Origin: Saprospiraceae bacterium
Lineage (GTDB): Bacteria; Bacteroidota; Bacteroidia; Chitinophagales; Saprospiraceae
Assembly: GCA_016706365.1 (NCBI GenBank)
Contig: JADJJU010000011.1
Span: forward strand, 77,654-141,653
DNA: 64,000 bases
Direction: 5' to 3'
How positions within the stretch are numbered: position 1 is the stretch's first letter; every line of letters starts with the position of its first letter. Made by a program: the position numbers and the translations under genes. Shown here one piece after another: positions 1,019-63,325 of this stretch. The notes beneath the pieces are model-generated. The model made no database searches, had not been told where the DNA came from, and saw nothing but the letters and a program-made list of their open reading frames with translations.

Positions 1019-3364
1019 TCAAATACTGTACTTCGCACTCAGCAGGAATATTCTTGTTTCTCTTTTAGAATAGAAGGTATGGGAAAAGGTATCGGTCAAA
1101 CTGTTACCGGCAAAGCGGCGGGTATCGAATATGTCCCGAACACTTAGAGAAACAGATGCTTTTTTATTGAACAATGTTTTCTGAATACTGGCATCCATGA
1201 AATACTGTTCCAGGTCTTTGCCCTGAGCCTCGATTTCAGGAGAATCATAATTGAAAACAAGTTGCAGGGTAAATCCAAGCGGGAGTCTGAAATCTGATGT
1301 AATTTTTGTGTTAAACGCTACACCACTATTCACAAATTCATCACTGATATTGGATCCATCCACATCAATCATGAAAGCTGTGGCACTACCGGTAAGAGTA
1401 ATCCAGGAAGCAAACTCAGAAACACCGATTGCCTCCACTCCATAAGATTCCGCACTATTTAAATTTTCAGGTTGCGAATAGGAAATACCATCCTCTACAT
1501 AGGTGATAAAATCCAACTGTCCATTGACTTGTCGGTAAAAGAAATTCGTTGTGAAGCTTGCCTTGTCCACTTCAAAAATATGACCGAGCTCCAGGGAGTT
1601 AATTAATTCAGGTTGTAGATTAGGATTCCCTCTTCTTACATTCAATGAATCTGTTATATCCGGGAATGGATTCAATCTCCAGGCAGTTGGTCTGTCAATC
1701 CTGCGGCTGTATGTGAATTTTGCAGCATGCTTATCATTAAGACGATATAGAGTCTGTAGGCTGGGAAATAAATTGAAATAGCTCTGGGTATTGCGCTGAT
1801 CTGTATTGTGCAGGTAAGTTTCGAAGTTGGTCAATTCTCCCCGGAGACCTGCTGTGATGTCCCATTTACCAGAAGTTCTTGCAAGAATTACATAAGCTGC
1901 GTGAATTCTATCCCTGTAATCAAAGCGATTACTGATAGCAGGATCTTCCTCAAAGATTTGACCTGGTTCATTGAATCGGGCAAAGTCATAATCGTATTCA
2001 AAATTTCTGATATTGGACTTCAGACCTGCCTCCATTTTCATACTCTCATTAATAGGATGGATGTAATCCCCCTGAAAAATATAATTAAAACGCTTTTCAT
2101 CCGTAAATGCTCTCTCCTGCCCTTCCGGATCAAATCCAGGAATTTGTACGTCTCTGAAAATGTCTATTTGCTGAGTTTTATACTGATTTGTGTATGATTG
2201 ACTCGCCATCATTTTGAATGAACGCTCTTTATTGTCGAAAGTCCTTTCGTAAATCAAGGCATTGTCTAATCCATCATCAGTTTCGGACTCAGTATTTCTT
2301 CTGACATATTCCTGCAATAATTCGCCGGATTCCAGGCTTGTTAACCTTGAATATAGCGTATTCAAATCATTATCAAGGCTGGTATTATATACTCCCTCGT
2401 AGCTCAGAATATTTTTTCCAAAATAATAATCTCCGCCATAAGTAAAGTTGTGCCCCAGATTATCGCTTTTATTGGCTGTTTCCTGTCGCAGAAATTCACC
2501 TTCTCCAAAAATTTCTCTGTCTCTTACCCTTGTGCCTACATTAAGCCATCGTCTCAAGTTGTAACCACCATAGATATTGAATTCAATAGCCCGATGATTG
2601 AGTTGTGCCCCCAGATTCATACGTCCCCGAGTACCATAAAGTGCATCGATATTGGCATTGGTGCCTAAATTATCCCCTTTTTTCAGAATGATATCTATAA
2701 TTCCTGCTTCGGCTTCTGCATCATAGCGGGCATTTGGATTGTTGATGATTTTGATTTGCTCGATAGCTGAGGCCGGTATTCTTTCAAGGTTTTGAGTCAG
2801 AGAAGAATTGCGGCCATTTATCAGCACATTGGTACCTGAACTACCACGCAGAGATACAGATCCATCATCGCTCACACTTACTGAAGGTGTATTTCTAAGA
2901 ATATCCAGCAAAGTACCACCAAGATTAGAAAGATTTTGATCAGGATTGATGGTGAGCCCCTCGACATTTGTTCGCATTTGAAGCTTCGAACTTTGAACTA
3001 CGACTTCACCGAGCTGCATGGATTCATCTGCCAACTCGATTTCTCCCATATCTACATCTGAATCAACAATTACATTTGGAATTACCAGATCTTCATATCC
3101 CAACAGGAAAAATTTAATTGTGTAAGTTCCAGTATATATTTTCATACTAAAATTACCATCAAGGTCTGTTTCAGCGGACACTAAAGGTGTTGTCTGCTCT
3201 CCTGTAAATGCTGCTACCTGAAGGAAGGAAACGGGTTGATTTGTCTTTTCATCGAGCACTTTTCCGCTGACTGTGAGCAGCTCAATATCGTATTGAGCGA
3301 ATGTATTTGCAGAGAAAAATAATAAGATAAAAGTAAATATGCTATATTTTATTAATATATTCAT
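1019..3364 (-). CDS. TonB-dependent-receptor-like outer membrane beta-barrel protein with N-terminal carboxypeptidase-regulatory-like domain
   Basis: 781 aa; signal peptide ending FAQ; CarbopepD_reg-like VSGKVLDEKTNQPVSFLQV; plug-like SVSLRGSSGTNVLINGR; long beta-rich C-terminal part. Confidence 0.8.
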   Translation of the reverse strand: MNILIKYSIFTFILLFFSANTFAQYDIELLTVSGKVLDEKTNQPVSFLQVAAFTGEQTTPLVSAETDLDGNFSMKIYTGTYTIKFFLLGYEDLVIPNVIVDSDVDMGEIELADESMQLGEVVVQSSKLQMRTNVEGLTINPDQNLSNLGGTLLDILRNTPSVSVSDDGSVSLRGSSGTNVLINGRNSSLTQNLERIPASAIEQIKIINNPNARYDAEAEAGIIDIILKKGDNLGTNANIDALYGTRGRMNLGAQLNHRAIEFNIYGGYNLRRWLNVGTRVRDREIFGEGEFLRQETANKSDNLGHNFTYGGDYYFGKNILSYEGVYNTSLDNDLNTLYSRLTSLESGELLQEYVRRNTESETDDGLDNALIYERTFDNKERSFKMMASQSYTNQYKTQQIDIFRDVQIPGFDPEGQERAFTDEKRFNYIFQGDYIHPINESMKMEAGLKSNIRNFEYDYDFARFNEPGQIFEEDPAISNRFDYRDRIHAAYVILARTSGKWDITAGLRGELTNFETYLHNTDQRNTQSYFNLFPSLQTLYRLNDKHAAKFTYSRRIDRPTAWRLNPFPDITDSLNVRRGNPNLQPELINSLELGHIFEVDKASFTTNFFYRQVNGQLDFITYVEDGISYSQPENLNSAESYGVEAIGVSEFASWITLTGSATAFMIDVDGSNISDEFVNSGVAFNTKITSDFRLPLGFTLQLVFNYDSPEIEAQGKDLEQYFMDASIQKTLFNKKASVSLSVRDIFDTRRFAGNSLTDTFSHTFYSKRETRIFLLSAKYSI

Positions 3365-3451
3365 TATTGAAGAATCAAGGAGTTACTGTTTGAGGGTACA
3401 ATAAAAATGATACGAAATTGTTTTTGCAAATATCTTAAATAAAACTTAAAA

Positions 3452-3548
3452 AACAGCTGCAACCTTGTTGCTGGTTGCTGGTTGCTGGTTGCTGGTTGCT
3501 GGTGAACAGCCGCTTCTAGCTCTGGCTTTTGGCTTTTGGCAAACAGCC
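3452..3548. repeat. AACAGCC-punctuated module including heptanucleotide microsatellite (GTTGCTG)x5 at 3467-3501
   Basis: AACAGCT at 3452, AACAGCC at 3505 and 3542; five exact tandem GTTGCTG units; words CTTCTAGCTCTGGCTTTTGGCTTTTGGC. Confidence 0.85.
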
Positions 3549-3774
3549 AGTGTGGGTGAAACGCTTGGTGTTTGTATCTTCTCCAACTCAAACTGACTCA
3601 CACCCATACAAACTCACGCTCTACACCCTGAACTCAATCGGGGGCTCCGCACGCACATCACCTCAGCAATAAATTGACTGCAAAGCAGACAATTTATTGC
3701 TGAGACATCACTTCTTCGCGGCGTAGCCATGAAGAAACATCACCTTTCCAGCCGCAGGTGCAGAAAGACATCAC
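3542..3774 (+). repeat. copy B of the ~235-nt intergenic module (ACATCAC hairpin array 3655-3774)
   Basis: Collinear with 724-956; ACATCAC(C) at 3655, 3705, 3737 and 3768. Confidence 0.85.
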
Positions 3775-3819
3775 AGCAGCTCCACACTCAAATTTAAAAT
3801 TAAAACAAAAAATATTTCC

Positions 3820-3846
3820 GCAATCAAATAATTGCACATATATTTG
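3820..3846 (+). promoter_or_regulatory. candidate promoter/operator of the arsR-SRPBCC pair
   Basis: Inverted repeat GCAAT-caaata-ATTGC (3820-3835) next to a Bacteroidota-type -7 box TATATTTG (3839-3846), 30 nt upstream of the ATG at 3876. Confidence 0.3.
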
Positions 3847-3875
3847 CAACCATTCAGTAGCACAAATAAATCATT

Positions 3876-4202
3876 ATGAGAAGAGACATATTTCAAGCCA
3901 TAGCAGATCCTACCAGAAGGGCAATTCTGAGTTTGATAGCTCTGCAGGCAATGACACCCAATGCACTTGCCACCCATTTTGACAGCAGCAGACAGGCAGT
4001 TTCGAAGCATATCAAGATCCTGACAGAATGCAAACTGATAGAACAAAAACAGGATGGCAGGGAAATTTATTACCATTTTAATCCCGAGAAAATGAAAGAA
4101 GTAGATCAATGGATAGAGCAATTCCGTAAAATATGGGAGCGACGATTTGATCAATTGGACCAGGTATTGCTCAACATGAAAAATAAAAAGAATGAGAAGT
4201 GA
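3876..4202 (+). CDS. ArsR/SmtB family winged-helix transcriptional regulator
   Basis: 108 aa; [16 protein letters not shown] ... [28 protein letters not shown] pattern. Confidence 0.85.
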
Positions 4203-8249: not shown

Positions 8250-8441
8250 CTGGTTGCTGGTTGCTGGTTGAACAGCTAATTGGTGACTTGGTGAATTGGC
8301 GAATCAAACAGCCAATGAAACAGCCAATTACCAGCCTCGAAAACTACGAACTTAGGAGTTTTGCCCTGCATAGTCATGTGAGTGTGAGTGTGAGTGTCGT
8401 AGCTGGAAGCTACTGGAAGCATGGATGTGTGAGAAACAGCC
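8250..8441. repeat. AACAGCC-punctuated stuttered-word block
   Basis: (GGTTGCT)n at 8252-8270, AACAGCT at 8271, AACAGCC at 8307, 8319 and 8435; stutters TTGGTGACTTGGTGAATTGGCG, GTGAGTGTGAGTGTGAGTGT, GCTGGAAGCTACTGGAAGC. Confidence 0.8.
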
Positions 8442-8479
8442 GGGAAAAATTTTGAGTTATGAGATGCAATACGTTTCTG

Positions 8480-8760
8480 GAATTGAGCCTTTTCTGTGAT
8501 GGATTTAGCCCTGAAAGGGCGCCATATACCAGCGAGGCGGCGCAGCCCCTCGCGAAAAAGCCGCGAGATTACGCTTCAAACCACCCATCGGCAAAAAGCA
8601 GTGAAGCGTTTTTTCATTTAATTGTTAACAGCCGGTGTATAGAAGATCCAGCAGTGGCCAGACCTGACGCTCGCGGCAGGGCCGGGCGACAGCGAGCTGC
8701 GAAACGTAGCGCAGCCCGCAGGGATGACCGCCCAAAATATTGCCTTGAGAGACTATGGAA
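8480..8760 (+). other. GC-rich mosaic of short perfect hairpins (possible structured RNA or REP-like cluster)
   Basis: GCCC-tgaaa-GGGC 8508-8520; CGAGG/CCTCG 8533-8552; CTCGCG/CGCGAG 8549-8567; ACGCTTCA/TGAAGCGT 8571-8609 followed by a T-run; GCTCGC/GCGAGC 8669-8697; GCTGCG/CGCAGC 8696-8715. Confidence 0.6.
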
Positions 8761-9781: not shown

Positions 9782-9960
9782 GCAGCCGGTAAACAGCCTC
9801 GTTAAAGCGGTAAAGCGTTGAATCGGAAACAGCCGAAAAGAAGCTGCAAGCTACAAGATGCAAGCTGCAAGAAAACAGCCGGAACAGCATTGTTAAAGAT
9901 TTGAGTAGGGAGCTGCTGTAGGGGCCAATCAAGATTCGTCATATCTCTGCAGGAACAGCC
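9781..9960. repeat. AACAGCC-punctuated stuttered-word block
   Basis: AGCAGCC at 9781; AACAGCC at 9792, 9828, 9874 and 9954; AACAGCA at 9883; stutters GTTAAAGCGGTAAAGCG and AAGCTGCAAGCTACAAGATGCAAGCTGCAAG. Confidence 0.8.
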
Positions 9961-22761: not shown

Positions 22762-23166
22762 ATGAAATTTATAATTTTATCTATCAGCTTATTATGGTCA
22801 TTCCAGACGCTGACCGCCCAAAGTATTTCAGGCCATATCCTGGAACTTGAATCCTATACCAAATGGGATGCCGTGGAAAAAGAATGGGCAGGTGTTCGCA
22901 AAGATTGGGAAGTTCAAGCCAAAAAGGAAAATACGGCTGTTATTAGTGCCGGCTTATTGCTGTCATTTGAATCATACATCAAATGGGATGCGGTGGAAAC
23001 ATCATGGAAAAAACGCCGTGACAAATGGGTAAAAGAAGTTGAAAAAGCAGTCACTAACGCACAGGTTGCAGCGCTTCTCATTGAACTGGAATCCAACATT
23101 AAATGGACCGCAGTGGATGAAAAATGGAAAGGACGCAGAGAGGCCTGGATTAGTGAATTGAAATAA
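22762..23166 (+). CDS. small secreted protein made of three Trp-rich ~38-aa repeats
   Basis: Signal peptide, then LELESYTKWDAVEKEWAGVRKDW / LSFESYIKWDAVETSWKKRRDKW / IELESNIKWTAVDEKWKGRREAW. Confidence 0.65.
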   Translation: MKFIILSISLLWSFQTLTAQSISGHILELESYTKWDAVEKEWAGVRKDWEVQAKKENTAVISAGLLLSFESYIKWDAVETSWKKRRDKWVKEVEKAVTNAQVAALLIELESNIKWTAVDEKWKGRREAWISELK

Positions 23167-23169
23167 TGG

Positions 23170-23275
23170 TCTGAACAGCCGTTGAATCGGTTAATCGGTT
23201 AAGTGTATAAGCGAAGTGTGAAGAAACAGCCGCTATTGGCTTTTGGCTGTTAGCTTTTGGCTAACAGCCGGAGCT
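23170..23275. repeat. AACAGCC-punctuated module with perfect 10-bp hairpin
   Basis: AACAGCC at 23174, 23225 and 23263; GGCTGTTAGC(23245-23254)-ttttg-GCTAACAGCC(23260-23269); stutter GAATCGGTTAATCGGTTAAG. Confidence 0.85.
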
Positions 23276-23309
23276 GAGTTACTGAGTATGCCAGGAGCTA
23301 TCCAGATTT

Positions 23310-23487
23310 AATGCCTTCCGGATTTCCCAACCTTAAATGTATTCCCTCCACTAGTATGTCATATTTTTCAAGATGTCTCAAATGTGCCCTCTTAAAACTC
23401 CGTATGGAGTTTAACATGAATAACCCCGTGCAAGTGAAACGCAGCTCGGGATACATAATCACTCCTCCCCGAACTCCGTAGGTGTTC
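23310..23487. repeat. three-hairpin element locus (left copy truncated, right copy complete at 23395-23487)
   Basis: AATGCCTTCCGGATT at 23310-23324; AAACTCC-gtat-GGAGTTT at 23395-23412; CCCGTGC..GCTCGGG; GAACTCC-gta-GGTGTTC at 23471-23487; homologous to 46159-46409. Confidence 0.8.
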
Positions 23488-23581
23488 AATTTGAAATGAA
23501 CCGGCATTCTCCAGGTTTAGATTCAATTCCAATTAATGCTGGCTTTATTGACTTTCGAGTTATATGTGAATTACTGTTTTG

Positions 23582-24183
23582 TCCTCACCATTCACTTTTC
23601 AAATTTCACATTTCAATTTTCACATCTTACTTCTAACCATTTACCATTTACTATTCACCATTTACTTTTCTCATCTCACATTTCACATTTGACATCTCAC
23701 CCTTCTCTTCCTGCCATTTACTATTCCCTTTTCACTTTTCACTTTTTTTCCTCTTCTAACCATTCACCATTTACTATTCACCATTTACTTTTCTCATCTC
23801 ACATTTCACATTTGACATCTCACCCTTCTCTTCTTACCATTTACTATTCACCATTTACTATTCACTTTTCAATTTTCACATTTCACTTTTCACGTCTTAC
23901 TTCTAACCATTCACCATTTACTATTCACCATTTACTATTCTCATCTCACATTTCACATTTGACATCTCACACTTCTCTTCTTACCATTTACTATTCACCA
24001 TTTACTATTCACTTTTCACTTTTCACATTTCACTTTTCACTTCTTACTTCTAACCATTCACTATTCACCATTCACTATTCACCATTTACTTTTCTCATCT
24101 CACATTTCACATTTGACATCTCACCCTTCTCTTCCTGCCATTTACTATTCCCTTTTCACTTTTCACTTTTTTCTCCCTCCTTT
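23582..24183 (+). repeat. G-depleted tandem repeat (4 units; unit starts 23631, 23754, 23901 and 24048; periods 123, 147 and 147 nt)
   Basis: Only 7 G counted in 602 nt on the + strand; built from words TCACTTTTCAC, CCATTTACTATTCAC, CATCTCACATTTCACATTTGACATCTCAC. Confidence 0.9.
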
Positions 24184-24296
24184 GGAAAAATAAATTCCAA
24201 ATCGTACCTTCCCGTTTTATACCCGCCAAGATCTATGAACTGCTCAACCCGAGCCTGTCTTCTATTTATTGATATCACAAAAATTCAATTCAGCCC

Positions 24297-26246
24297 ATGC
24301 AAAAGTTCTTGCTCCTACTGTCCTTGACATTTTTAACACTCATCCTGAATGCTCAAAGTAATGAAGCATATTTCATGTCACATTCCACGCTGACACCAGA
24401 CGGACAAACGATTATTTTTGATTATGACAATGATCTTTGGAAGGTCAGCACCGCGGGTGGCTCTGCCTCCAGATTGACTGCGATGGATGGAAATGAACAG
24501 TATCCCCGTGTCTCACCTGATGGGAAATGGCTTGCATTTTCGGGCAATCAATATGGGGGGACCGATGTATATATTATGCCACTTAATGGGGGCGATATCA
24601 AACAATTAACTTATCATGAAGCCTTTGATCACGTGGATAGCTGGTCCTGGGATTCAAAAAATATTTACTTCACATCCAATCGTTACAATCGTCAGTCAGG
24701 TTATAAAGTTTCCATTGATGGGGGAACTCCTGTGAGGTTATTTGCCAATTATTTCAATACTGTCCATTCCATTGTTGAGCATCCCAATGGTGAAATATTC
24801 TTCAATGAAACCTGGGAAAGCAAGTCATCAGCTAACCGCAAAAGATACAAGGGAGCATATAATCCAGATTTACAATCATATAACCCCAAAACAAAAGAAT
24901 TTAAAGTTTACACTTCATGGAACGGCAAAGATTTCTGGCCGACTTTTGACAAGCAGGGCAAAATTTATTTTGTATCGGATGAGGCAAATGGGGAATACAA
25001 TCTTTATGAACTGGAAGGGAAAAATAAAAAACAACTTAGCAAATTCAATACCTCCATCAGCAGGCCACAAGTAAGTGCTAATGGAGAAAAAATAGTATTC
25101 GAAAAGGATTACCAGTTATGGGTATATGATGTGAAGTCTAAGGATAGCAAAAAAGTGAATATCAATATTTTCAACAATAGTGTTCTTACCAAAAGCCAGG
25201 ATTTTGATGTTAAAGGGAAAATTGAAAGCTTTGATGTTTCCCCTGATGGGAAAAAAATGGCTTTCGTGTCAAGAGGTAAACTTTTTGCTTCTGATATAAA
25301 AGGTCAATTTGTCAATCTTTTATCCACCGGTACAGGACGGGTGCTGGAAGTTAACTGGATGGCAGACAATAAAACAATGATCTATGGTAAAACCAATGAA
25401 AATGGCTATGCTAATTATTTCACCATTGCTGCTGATGGATCCTCAGCTGAAAAACAAATCACCAATGTAAGTCGTAACGATCGTGATCTCAGTCTCAATC
25501 ATGACAAAAGTATGGGAGTATATATCAGCGGTCGCGATGAAGTGAGAACAATTGACCTCAAATCGCTGACGACTTCATTAATTGTAAAGGACGAAATCTG
25601 GGGATTTCAAAATCCGGCTCCGGGCTTTTCACCGGACGGAGAGTATGTTGTTTTCACAGTTCGCCGCAATTTTGAACAAGATATTGTAGTACATCATTTG
25701 AAATCAAAAACCACTACTAATCTTACAAAAACTGCCATCACAGAAACCAATCCTGTTTGGTCTCCGGATGGAAAATGGATTTATTTTATTTCCGACCGGC
25801 TTGGCCCGGGATATCCATATGGGCTTAGAGATGCACATATCTATCGCATACCCCTTGAGAAACATGAGGATCCCTATAAGAGCGACAAGTATGCAGAACT
25901 TTTTGCAGCGGACTCTACTAAAAAAGATGACGTAAAAAAAGAGGATAAACAGGATGAAAAGAAAGACGATAAGAAAAGCGACAAGAAAGATGACAAGAAA
26001 GATGACAAGAAAGATGAGAAAAAAGATTCAATAAAAATTGTAACCCCTCTCAGTATTAATCCGGAAGGATTGACACGCTTGGTGGAGCAGGTGGGGCCTA
26101 CTTTTGGAACCCAAAGCAATTTATTTCTGTCAAAGAAAGATGATAAGATTACTATGATTTTTGCATCTAATCATAGTGAAGGTAAATCCAATTGGTGGAA
26201 GACAACCTATGAACCATTCACTCCTCCCAAGACAGAAAAAAATTGA
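24297..26246 (+). CDS. tricorn-protease-like S41 peptidase, N-terminal beta-propeller part (frameshifted gene)
   Basis: Signal peptide; repeated SPDGKWLAF/SPDGKKMAF PD40-type blades; Lys/Asp-rich insert; ends 4 nt after the A7 run at 26236-26242. Confidence 0.8.
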   Translation: MQKFLLLLSLTFLTLILNAQSNEAYFMSHSTLTPDGQTIIFDYDNDLWKVSTAGGSASRLTAMDGNEQYPRVSPDGKWLAFSGNQYGGTDVYIMPLNGGDIKQLTYHEAFDHVDSWSWDSKNIYFTSNRYNRQSGYKVSIDGGTPVRLFANYFNTVHSIVEHPNGEIFFNETWESKSSANRKRYKGAYNPDLQSYNPKTKEFKVYTSWNGKDFWPTFDKQGKIYFVSDEANGEYNLYELEGKNKKQLSKFNTSISRPQVSANGEKIVFEKDYQLWVYDVKSKDSKKVNINIFNNSVLTKSQDFDVKGKIESFDVSPDGKKMAFVSRGKLFASDIKGQFVNLLSTGTGRVLEVNWMADNKTMIYGKTNENGYANYFTIAADGSSAEKQITNVSRNDRDLSLNHDKSMGVYISGRDEVRTIDLKSLTTSLIVKDEIWGFQNPAPGFSPDGEYVVFTVRRNFEQDIVVHHLKSKTTTNLTKTAITETNPVWSPDGKWIYFISDRLGPGYPYGLRDAHIYRIPLEKHEDPYKSDKYAELFAADSTKKDDVKKEDKQDEKKDDKKSDKKDDKKDDKKDEKKDSIKIVTPLSINPEGLTRLVEQVGPTFGTQSNLFLSKKDDKITMIFASNHSEGKSNWWKTTYEPFTPPKTEKN

Positions 26247-27513
26247 AGGGGCAGTTCAGGGGTCTGTCTATATCGTCGAGGTGAGCGGGAAAATGTATGG
26301 ATTGATTTCGGGCGATATTCATACTGTCAATCTGGAAGGTAAAAAAGTCGAGAAGGTCGAAATCTCTTACAAATTCCGCAAGAATTTACAGGAAGAATTC
26401 AATCAAATGTTTCATGAAACCTGGGCGAATATTGAGGAGAATTTTTACAATGAGACTTTCCATGGCATTGACTGGCCCGGAATGAAAAAAAGGTATGCGG
26501 CATATCTCCCTCATCTGGGATCAAGAGCTGATTTGCGAGTAGTATTGAATGACATGCTTGGAGAGTTAAATGCTTCCCATCTCGGATTTAATTCTGCAGG
26601 AGATGAGGAGAAAATATTTTACAAAACACAAAATGCTGAAACCGGAATTATTTTTGAAGAAGAGAAGCCATACACTGTCAAATACGTGGTTAAAAACAGT
26701 CCAGCTGATAAGAAAGGTAAAGATATCAAAGCAGGTGATGTGTTGACACATGTCAATGGTCAGGCAGTGGATACAAAAATGTCCAGACACTACTATTTCG
26801 CTCAGCCTTCGCTGGATGAAGAACTAAGTCTCAGCTTTAGTCGCGGCTCAGAAAAATACGATGTCAAAGTAAGACCTCAGGCTTTTAGTGCGCTTGTATC
26901 CCTGCTGTATGATGAGTGGATCGACAACAATAGAAGTCTTGTTCGCAGCAAAGGAAAAAACAGAATTGCCTACTCACATATGCGTAACATGGGCAAAGGA
27001 GAATTGGATAAATTCATGATGGAAATGAATAGCGAAGAATATGCAAAAGAGGGCTTAATTCTGGATTTAAGATTCAACACCGGAGGAAATGTTCATGATG
27101 ATGTTTTGCGCTTCCTTAATCAGCGTCCATACTTAAAGTGGAAATATCGTGAAGGAGCATTCACAGTCCAACCCAATTTTACCCCTGCTGCCCATCCGAT
27201 TGTATTGCTTATCAATGAACAATCATTGAGCGATGCTGAAATGACAGCCGCAGGATTCAAGGAACTCGGACTAGGAAAAATCGTCGGAACGGAGACATAC
27301 AGATGGATTATTTTCACTTCCGGAAAAGGACTGGTGGATGGTTCCTTCTATCGGATTCCGGGATGGGGATGTTATACCCTGGATGGAAAGAATCTGGAGC
27401 AGGAGGGTGTTCAGCCTGATATTCCTGTAGCCAATACATTCAAGGATCGTTTGGAAGGCAGAGATCCGCAATTGGAGAGAGCTGTGAGTGAAATTATGGG
27501 GCAGTTGAAGTAG
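26161..27513 (+). CDS. tricorn-protease-like S41 peptidase, C-terminal PDZ plus S41 catalytic part
   Basis: Frame +1 relative to 24297-26246; PDZ-like VVKNSPADKKGKDIKAGDVLTHVNGQAV; S41 motifs LILDLRFNTGGNV and LINEQSLSDAEM; the real continuation begins at about 26236. Confidence 0.8.
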   Translation: MHLIIVKVNPIGGRQPMNHSLLPRQKKIEGAVQGSVYIVEVSGKMYGLISGDIHTVNLEGKKVEKVEISYKFRKNLQEEFNQMFHETWANIEENFYNETFHGIDWPGMKKRYAAYLPHLGSRADLRVVLNDMLGELNASHLGFNSAGDEEKIFYKTQNAETGIIFEEEKPYTVKYVVKNSPADKKGKDIKAGDVLTHVNGQAVDTKMSRHYYFAQPSLDEELSLSFSRGSEKYDVKVRPQAFSALVSLLYDEWIDNNRSLVRSKGKNRIAYSHMRNMGKGELDKFMMEMNSEEYAKEGLILDLRFNTGGNVHDDVLRFLNQRPYLKWKYREGAFTVQPNFTPAAHPIVLLINEQSLSDAEMTAAGFKELGLGKIVGTETYRWIIFTSGKGLVDGSFYRIPGWGCYTLDGKNLEQEGVQPDIPVANTFKDRLEGRDPQLERAVSEIMGQLK

Positions 27514-63143: not shown

Positions 63144-63295
63144 TTATTGATTCGACCTTGCCAAAATTAATCAATTATTTGTTTTATGGCGGCCGCAGTA
63201 TGCCATTTATTCGGAAGGACTTGATCTCAAAAATAATGTTTATCAAATTGGTTCACCAACAGTTAATCGGATATTATGTCTTGTCCGGTTCCTTT

Positions 63296-63325
63296 GGGGG
63301 GGGGGGGGGGGCCCCCATCCCCCCC
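63296..63325. repeat. homopolymer tract G16-C5-AT-C7
   Basis: Read directly from the sequence; the only long G/C homopolymer in the window; a NotI site GCGGCCGC lies at 63189-63196. Confidence 0.9.

Follow-up and report, generated by a model that had tools for sequence, protein, structure and literature searches.

The question raised by this locus is why one strand of a bacterial intergenic region should be nearly devoid of a single base over some 600 nt. The window analyzed here, i.e., the whole 64-kb stretch of DNA, was placed in the Saprospiraceae by its tricorn-like protease, and the tract in question (positions 23582 to 24183) lies in the 1.1-kb gap between the open reading frame (ORF) 22762-23166 and the protease gene, which starts at 24297. 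A base count of its 602 nt yielded 273 T, 192 C, 130 A, and, exactly as the initial annotation had stated, 7 G on the + strand. These G residues are located at 23691, 23713, 23814, 23894, 23961, 24115, and 24137; the first six positions had been listed correctly, and the last had been placed one nucleotide too far downstream, at 24138. With G accounting for 19.7% of the bases on average across the window, a naive binomial calculation returns P = 1e-46, a value that, for a repeat, exaggerates the surprise. No other 100-nt stretch with three or fewer of any base was found within the 64 kb, which makes the tract the sole single-base-depleted one in the window. Its longest G-free run measures 153 nt versus 63 nt elsewhere in the window, and the GC skew across it ranges from -0.88 to -0.97. 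The G-poor stretch ends 113 nt and the repeat register described below (last position 24173) 123 nt before the ATG, in keeping with the distance of about 110 nt proposed earlier, and the array passes into unique sequence at both ends. A compositional peculiarity of another kind is present at 63277-63316, where a run of about 16 G is followed by CCCCC (tgtcttgtccggttcctttggggggggggggggggccccc), possibly a homopolymer tract or a sequencing artifact.

The neighborhood comprises a gene for a bestrophin-type channel, a small ORF, the tricorn-like protease gene with PD40/DPPIV_N domains followed by Tricorn_C1/PDZ/Peptidase_S41, and a gene for an ECF-type sigma factor. The 134-aa ORF 22762-23166 has no Pfam match and is directly preceded by the DUF805b RNA motif RF02914 (22709-22741; 44.6 bits versus a gathering score of 35.6). 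An ORF on the - strand (23298-23507) was considered as a divergent gene and rejected: in a strain variant about 65 nt of it are exchanged, so that it does not represent a conserved gene. In this variant, represented by a contig of the Logan collection (L002), an unrelated segment of about 65 nt stands in place of window positions 23330-23395; the 85 nt after 23395 (from the hairpin AAACTCCGTATGGAGTTT onward) are kept, and the short-read contigs stop there. The features of the locus are compiled in Table 1.

Table 1. Coordinates of the G-poor array, its higher-order units, and adjoining features (positions in the window)
Feature	Coordinates	Strand	Remarks
Stutter modules right after the upstream gene	23170..23270	+	Bracketed by AACAGCC; include GCTTTTG x4.4
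Chance ORF through the array, 263 aa	23536..24327	+	In G-free DNA TAA is the sole possible stop
Degenerate heptanucleotide tandem array	23582..24173	+	84 in-register heptamers, NNTTYAC; TRF and register reading
Leading partial unit	23582..23630	+	7 heptamers, like the tails of the 147-nt units (TTTTCAA/ATTTCAC/ATCTTAC)
Higher-order unit U1	23631..23753	+	123 nt; tail TTCCTGC CATTTAC TATTCCC TTTTCAC TTTTCAC TTTTTTT matches the U4 tail
Higher-order unit U2	23754..23900	+	147 nt = 21 heptamers
Higher-order unit U3	23901..24047	+	147 nt; 4 positions differ from U2
Higher-order unit U4	24048..24183	+	One extra heptamer, U1-like tail; unique sequence from ~24174
Conserved block, shared with L004 (closest ortholog locus)	24202..24296	+	Promoter-proximal / 5' UTR; 83/97 aligned columns identical
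Tricorn-like S41 protease gene	24297..27513	+	Two overlapping ORFs (24297-26246, 26161-27513); frameshift in an A7 run

The anatomy of the tract, which is directly visible in the sequence, already offers most of the answer. Tandem Repeats Finder (TRF) reported a period of 7 nt (consensus TTCACTT, 83.3 copies, 66% matches) together with derived periods of 14 and 70 nt. Reading in register resolved 23 heptamer variants led by CATTTAC (14 copies), TTTTCAC (10), TATTCAC (9), ATCTCAC (8), ATTTCAC (7), and CATTCAC (5). Position 4 is a T in 81 of the 84 heptamers, position 6 an A in 69, and position 7 a C in 80, and the phase is broken only once, by a 3-nt deletion (TAAC at 23757-23760). Superimposed on this register are the four long tandem units of the initial annotation, which were recovered with lengths of 123, 147, 147, and about 130 nt; TRF detected them as a 123-nt period (2.0 copies, 94% matches, 23630-23869) and a 147-nt period (2.8 copies, 92% matches, 23753-24170). 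The words quoted for them were likewise found: CCATTTACTATTCAC has 6 exact matches and 16 with at most two mismatches versus 0.23 expected, and the 29-mer CATCTCACATTTCACATTTGACATCTCAC has 4 exact matches versus 0 expected. The earlier description of the repeat was thus right about the long units and the words and had overlooked the underlying 7-nt register, of which the 147-nt unit is an exact multiple (21 x 7).

The long copies are 92 to 94% alike, versus 66% agreement of the heptamers with their own consensus. Perfect heptamer runs do not exceed 2 units, and an identity of at least 0.8 at a lag of 7 or 14 nt is confined to short stretches. Diverged monomers nested in nearly identical long units are the expected product of heptamer slippage followed by block duplication, and since U1 and U4 have a distinct tail in common, the duplicated blocks included the end of the array. 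Within and around the tract, a search for inverted repeats returned one weak 14-nt pair and nothing more.

The same architecture bears on the rarity of G. Four of the seven G residues represent a single position (in ATTTGAC) that was copied across the four long units, two reflect a common TGC/TAC difference, and one is unique. About 10 differences separate the long units, and as 3 of them involve G, this base is not strictly excluded. A minimum-spanning network of the 23 heptamer types requires at least 26 substitutions, 3 of which involve G; this proportion corresponds to p = 0.012-0.026 under a uniform null and to 0.21 if 20% of the changes create G, and it points only weakly to selection against G. 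That a single heptamer array in constant register makes up the entire tract explains its single-base depletion without invoking selection: the scarcity of G is mainly inherited from G-free seed heptamers in a young array and not kept base by base. Mild selection or a strand-biased mutation process may contribute.

An open frame spans the entire array (ORF 23536-24327), and it might be taken for the gene of a repetitive protein with SPFTIHH-type heptad repeats. Screening of 5.8 billion predicted proteins with this ORF yielded 23 weak matches, i.e., database "proteins" whose repeats are similar. Each one that was inspected is the translation of another heptamer array; the flanks are unrelated, and nothing but the translated heptamers is common to them. 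The frame itself follows from the composition of the array: there is a single TAA per unit (in TCTAACC), and the unit lengths of 123 and 147 nt are divisible by 3, which by construction leaves two of the three frames open. Moreover, the sequence varies with a period of 7 nt and not of 3 nt, the ORF extends into the beginning of the tricorn gene, and it has no Pfam match. A protein-coding tandem repeat was therefore rejected for want of a family match, conserved flanks, and codon-phase variation, and we regard it as next to inconceivable. The deposited hypothetical proteins with SPFTIHH/SLFTFHF repeats (P0001 to P0023), among them P0006, a fusion with a genuine lipid A acyltransferase, are spurious ORF calls resulting from array DNA that is short of stop codons.

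These spurious proteins led to comparable DNA elsewhere. Behind them are eight unrelated contigs with G-free TTCAC-type heptamer arrays of 150 to 310 nt in loci with a GC content of 35 to 56%; the unit types are CATTCAC/TATTCAC/ACTCACC or TTTTCAC/CTTCTCA. The initial judgment that such a tract is very unusual in bacterial DNA was accordingly too strong, given these contigs and the heptameric SSRs described before (PMC4679880, PMC4692102). The arrays differ in their genomic context, e.g., one is located between convergent genes (L084), one directly upstream of a lipid A acyltransferase gene, into which it reads (L085), and one upstream of an oppositely oriented gene (L086). Two more, in L088 (4223-4502) and L089 (4033-4345), consist of TATTCAC/TATTTAC and TTTTCAC heptamers; the gene content of both contigs looks eukaryotic (BCS1_N, NAAA-beta, MRS2-like; sparse gene calls), so that three-letter heptamer satellites are not confined to bacteria. 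According to a direct reading of the sequences, some of the analogous arrays have longer-period internal repeats of their own, and several are accompanied by further heptamer arrays (AAGGCTA x17, GGCTGAA x11, AAACCTT x11, AGTGACA x6). A period of 7 nt is also the commonest tandem-repeat period in our material, being that of 7 of the window's 19 loci and, once the fetched loci are included, of 34 of 128.

Within the window the tract is in similar company, and its likeness to other word-stutter segments, which had been noticed initially, recurs in further intergenic regions of this genome. The stutter modules listed in Table 1 are the short form of the intergenic repeat habit to which the array also belongs. 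The heptamer AACAGCC (often G/A-AACAGCC) occurs 29 times versus 6.1 expected, with 23 occurrences on the + strand and a clustering between genes (469-730, 3505-3548, 8307-8633, 9792-9960, 23174-23269, and 61558; also 120-350 in L004). It brackets stutter modules and heptamer repeats of GTTGCTG, CTGGTTG, AAGCTGC, GCTTTTG, and TTTCAGG, is sometimes arranged in inverted pairs (GGCTGTT...AACAGCC), and appears as GGCTGTTY upstream of the L004 ortholog. This punctuation has the look of an intergenic repeat system peculiar to the lineage. A dispersed composite module of about 250 nt is present twice, at 640-960 and 3500-3780, the likeness of the copies having been judged by reading the sequence; each copy combines an AACAGCC-bounded stutter, a C/A-rich segment of ACTCACAC words, a long perfect hairpin (e.g., TCCGAAAAAAATTGACTGCGAAGCAGACAATTTTTTTCGGA), and repeated CATCACCT-hairpin units.

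In the closest ortholog locus (L004; 89% amino acid identity of the protease), the conserved block of 95 nt before the ATG is as similar as the coding sequence (254/300), and upstream of it the alignment drops to background identity (117/214). At the place of the array, L004 contains TATCTCA x4.7 within 120 nt that include 4 G, and further stutter modules come before this stretch. The array is thus not conserved even at L004, where the heptamer is a different one. In four further Saprospiraceae orthologs of 65 to 70% identity (L005, L006, L007, and L050), another gene lies upstream and the spacer is short and ordinary, without the tract, and two loci of 62 to 63% identity, L008 (Saprospiraceae) and L009 (Lewinellaceae), carry 16- to 18-nt tandem arrays instead. 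The latter, with units built on GGGCGACCGCAAGG / CCTTGCGGTCGCCC, are located upstream of the protease at 3197-3954 (L008) and 3627-3898 (L009) and are partly N-masked.

A conserved G-poor leader was not found across 70 tricorn orthologs, whose 150 nt upstream contain on average 0.176 G and 0.197 C, versus 0.162 and 0.181 for control genes of the window; G-poor upstream regions also occur in two of these orthologs, L004 and L080. Judged by these alignments, the array is lineage-specific and not tied to the tricorn gene family, and the last 95 nt before the ATG alone look like a conserved promoter or leader. The same locus was also sought in other strains: exact-protein look-ups retrieved only three Logan contigs of less than 2 kb, all of which stop before the array; no match listed in a protein search with the tricorn N terminus exceeded 69% identity; and the one exact match of a metagenome scan with a 24-mer of the unit is an unrelated short heptamer array.

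These results weigh on the idea that the array acts as a tunable cis-regulatory element, i.e., a contingency locus in which gain or loss of heptamers or 147-nt units would set tricorn expression, as modeled on the (ATCTTTC)n repeat of hmw1A. A codirectional gene 113 to 123 nt downstream, the 7-nt period, and the G-free coding strand would suit such a role, and an indel has in fact occurred nearby, in that L002 has one 8-nt AATCGGTT unit fewer than the window at 23196-23203 in the neighboring stutter module. Units as degenerate as these, with 66% matches and perfect runs of 2 units, are not expected to slip at a high rate, a complementary G-rich arm for an hmw-type hairpin is lacking, and the predicted RNA is unstructured. 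In addition, the conserved promoter-proximal block is situated downstream of the array, the analogous arrays elsewhere are inconsistent in position and orientation relative to genes, and the same-species contigs found all end before the array. We consider a contingency locus unlikely.

The array could also serve as a functional platform, either as a G-less leader or sponge RNA loading S1, cold-shock, or RRM proteins or, on the - strand, as a GTGAAW array for a DNA-binding regulator. The predicted fold of the + strand RNA has a minimum free energy (MFE) of -0.29 kcal/mol for 602 nt and is no better than that of shuffled sequences, which bears out by calculation the earlier statement that such a transcript would be unstructured; the - strand reaches -18.2 kcal/mol (z-scores of 0.92 for the + strand and 0.27 for the - strand). 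The AC at heptamer positions 6 and 7 is kept in about 80 of the 84 units, G-involving changes are slightly under-represented, and S1, Csp, and CsrA have been proposed as binders of the intergenic TAACTGA heptamers in Beggiatoaceae (PMC4679880). Recent shared ancestry of the units explains the kept AC just as well. Conservation of the tract in relatives was not observed, and upstream G depletion is not common to the 70 orthologs. With a spacing of 7 nt, the repeats do not keep the helical phase of typical direct-repeat regulators, and a protein-binding array is further weakened by the varied context and orientation of the analogous arrays elsewhere. Rfam matches in the tract were absent at the gathering threshold (whole window) and at E values of up to 10 (23100-24400), the two weak matches of the latter scan falling outside it at 23148-23270.

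A promoter motif was found neither within the tract nor upstream of it. The motif used by the primary sigma factors of Bacteroidota is TAnnTTTG, an exact copy of which is absent from both strands throughout 23100-24330; in its place, the scan returned CACATTTG once per unit. A sigma-70-type match (TTGACA-17-TACCAT) in units 2 and 3 was discounted, as the scan covers E. coli-type promoters only and may not suit this host. Taken together, a platform role appears distinctly improbable. Even bolder is the proposal that three-letter heptamer arrays, here and in other gliding or filamentous heptamer-rich lineages, are kept G-free as single-stranded platforms (S1/Csp/RRM-loading leaders or sponge RNAs in a phylum without Shine-Dalgarno pairing) or are made by a dedicated repeat-adding activity rather than by slippage. 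The deficit of G substitutions (3/26), the kept AC, and the recurring TTCAC-type arrays are compatible with this proposal without requiring it, and it strikes us as very improbable.

A more trivial concern is that the array exists but that its unit number or fine sequence is an expansion, collapse, or error of the assembly. Logan contigs assembled from short reads of the same organism end ahead of it, the contig of the closest relative begins only 553 nt upstream of the gene, and the adjacent tricorn gene contains a change of frame of the kind typical of consensus indel errors, which was located in an A7 run (GACAGAAAAAAATTG; about 26227-26261) by comparison with the 1,044-aa ortholog of L007. 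This change is either such an error or a real frameshift, and it suggests a long-read consensus with residual indel errors; the T-run lengths of the array and its single phase break should therefore be read with caution. Against an artifact stand the substitutions between the long units, the distinct tail of U1 and U4, and the unique sequence that both array ends enter, and the homopolymer error pattern itself suggests a long-read assembly, whose reads would span 600 nt. A misassembly of this kind thus seems quite improbable. The protease gene has a repeat of its own, an in-frame, Lys/Asp-rich 12-nt coding repeat (GATGACAAGAAA x6; 25919-26027), and L004 contains a different 12-nt repeat (GAAGAGAAAAAA x5.9; 2186-2256) at the same place; these repeats appear to be a variable low-complexity insert.

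Overall, we class the array as an extreme and decayed member of the heptameric SSRs with a higher-order structure, and we infer, with a probability of roughly two in three, that it is a fast-evolving spacer devoid of a sequence-specific function that originated by slippage, diversification, and 147-nt duplication. Set against this account are the G-poor upstream regions of two other tricorn orthologs, a length well beyond that of the bacterial heptamer arrays reported earlier, and the fact that the array has lasted long enough to diversify. A G-free 7-nt seed of the type YWTTYAC would have been amplified by slipped-strand mispairing, and point mutations would then have diversified the copies into about 23 variants. 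More recently, blocks of 21 heptamers (147 nt) would have been duplicated by unequal recombination or long-range slippage, resulting in the four units, and from the seed both strands would have inherited their composition, with hardly any G on the + strand and hardly any C on the - strand. As the array turns over quickly between relatives and is located upstream of the only conserved 95 nt, it is most likely a non-essential intergenic spacer. Any effect on the tricorn gene would be exerted via array length, the inability to pair, or copy number and not via a conserved site.

The array thus represents a well-documented extreme case of a repeat class whose biology stays poorly understood; to our knowledge, almost nothing is known about why heptamers are over-represented among bacterial long SSRs. 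The locus shows that heptamer arrays in a bacterium can reach about 600 nt, decay into many variants, and gain a satellite-like higher-order structure, and that they occur in the Saprospiraceae, a family abundant in activated sludge. Practical consequences arise as well: three-letter tracts break short-read assemblies and give rise to long spurious ORFs, which enter public databases as "proteins" (23 found here). If transcribed or variable in copy number, the array would provide a natural G-less leader for studying initiation without a Shine-Dalgarno sequence in Bacteroidota.

A comparison with known systems supports this placement. Iterons and direct-repeat regulators have spacings of about 10 to 11 or 21 to 22 bp, versus 7 or 14 nt here, and the tract adjoins no replication or partition gene and is not conserved. 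The hmw1A/hmw2A repeats (ATCTTTC)n of Haemophilus influenzae resemble the array in being sense-strand G-free heptamers upstream of a gene on the same strand (PMC12721329, PMC8262952). They differ in being perfect, in being located in a mapped 5' UTR, and in pairing with a G-rich arm to form a hairpin (PMC12721329, PMC8262952), which for hmw1A is a substrate of RNase III (PMC12721329). Our array has degenerate units, no pairing partner, and a predicted unstructured RNA, and its perfect runs of 2 units fall short of the long perfect runs of phase-variable loci. In architecture only, it resembles eukaryotic higher-order satellites, in which diverged short monomers are likewise nested in long units of more than 90% identity; these extend over kilobases to megabases, whereas the array comprises 0.6 kb of bacterial intergenic DNA without a centromeric or structural role.

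The closest counterparts are the heptameric LSSRs, e.g., the cyanobacterial STRR heptamers, TAACTGA of Beggiatoaceae, Cyanobacteria, and Bacteroidetes, and GGGAATC/GGGGAYT of Xanthomonas and Nostoc (PMC4679880, PMC4692102; Mrazek et al. 2007, as cited therein). In the literature searched, no description of the NNTTYAC motif family or of Saprospiraceae tandem-repeat arrays was found. Heptamers are reported to be the most abundant long SSR class in many bacteria, to be mostly intergenic, and to vary between close relatives; they have been ascribed to polymerase slippage and, tentatively, to the length of DNA that the slipping polymerase holds (Mrazek et al. 2007, as cited in PMC4679880 and PMC4692102). 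Arrays of Bacteroidetes and Cyanobacteria comprise up to 43 copies, several heptamers may share an intergenic region, and arrays are absent from close relatives with the same gene neighborhood (PMC4679880). Our array agrees with this class in its constant head-to-tail 7-nt register with one 3-nt break in 84 heptamers, its intergenic location, the several different heptamer arrays in the genome, including other heptamers in neighboring intergenic regions, and the lack of mobile-element features. It also shares the rapid turnover, as the heptamer of L004 differs and the relatives of 62 to 70% identity are without the array. It departs from the near-perfect unit identity of the class in its 66% matches and 23 variants, and it stands out by 84 units versus a reported maximum of 43 (PMC4679880), by its three-letter strand, and by the 147-nt higher-order repeat.
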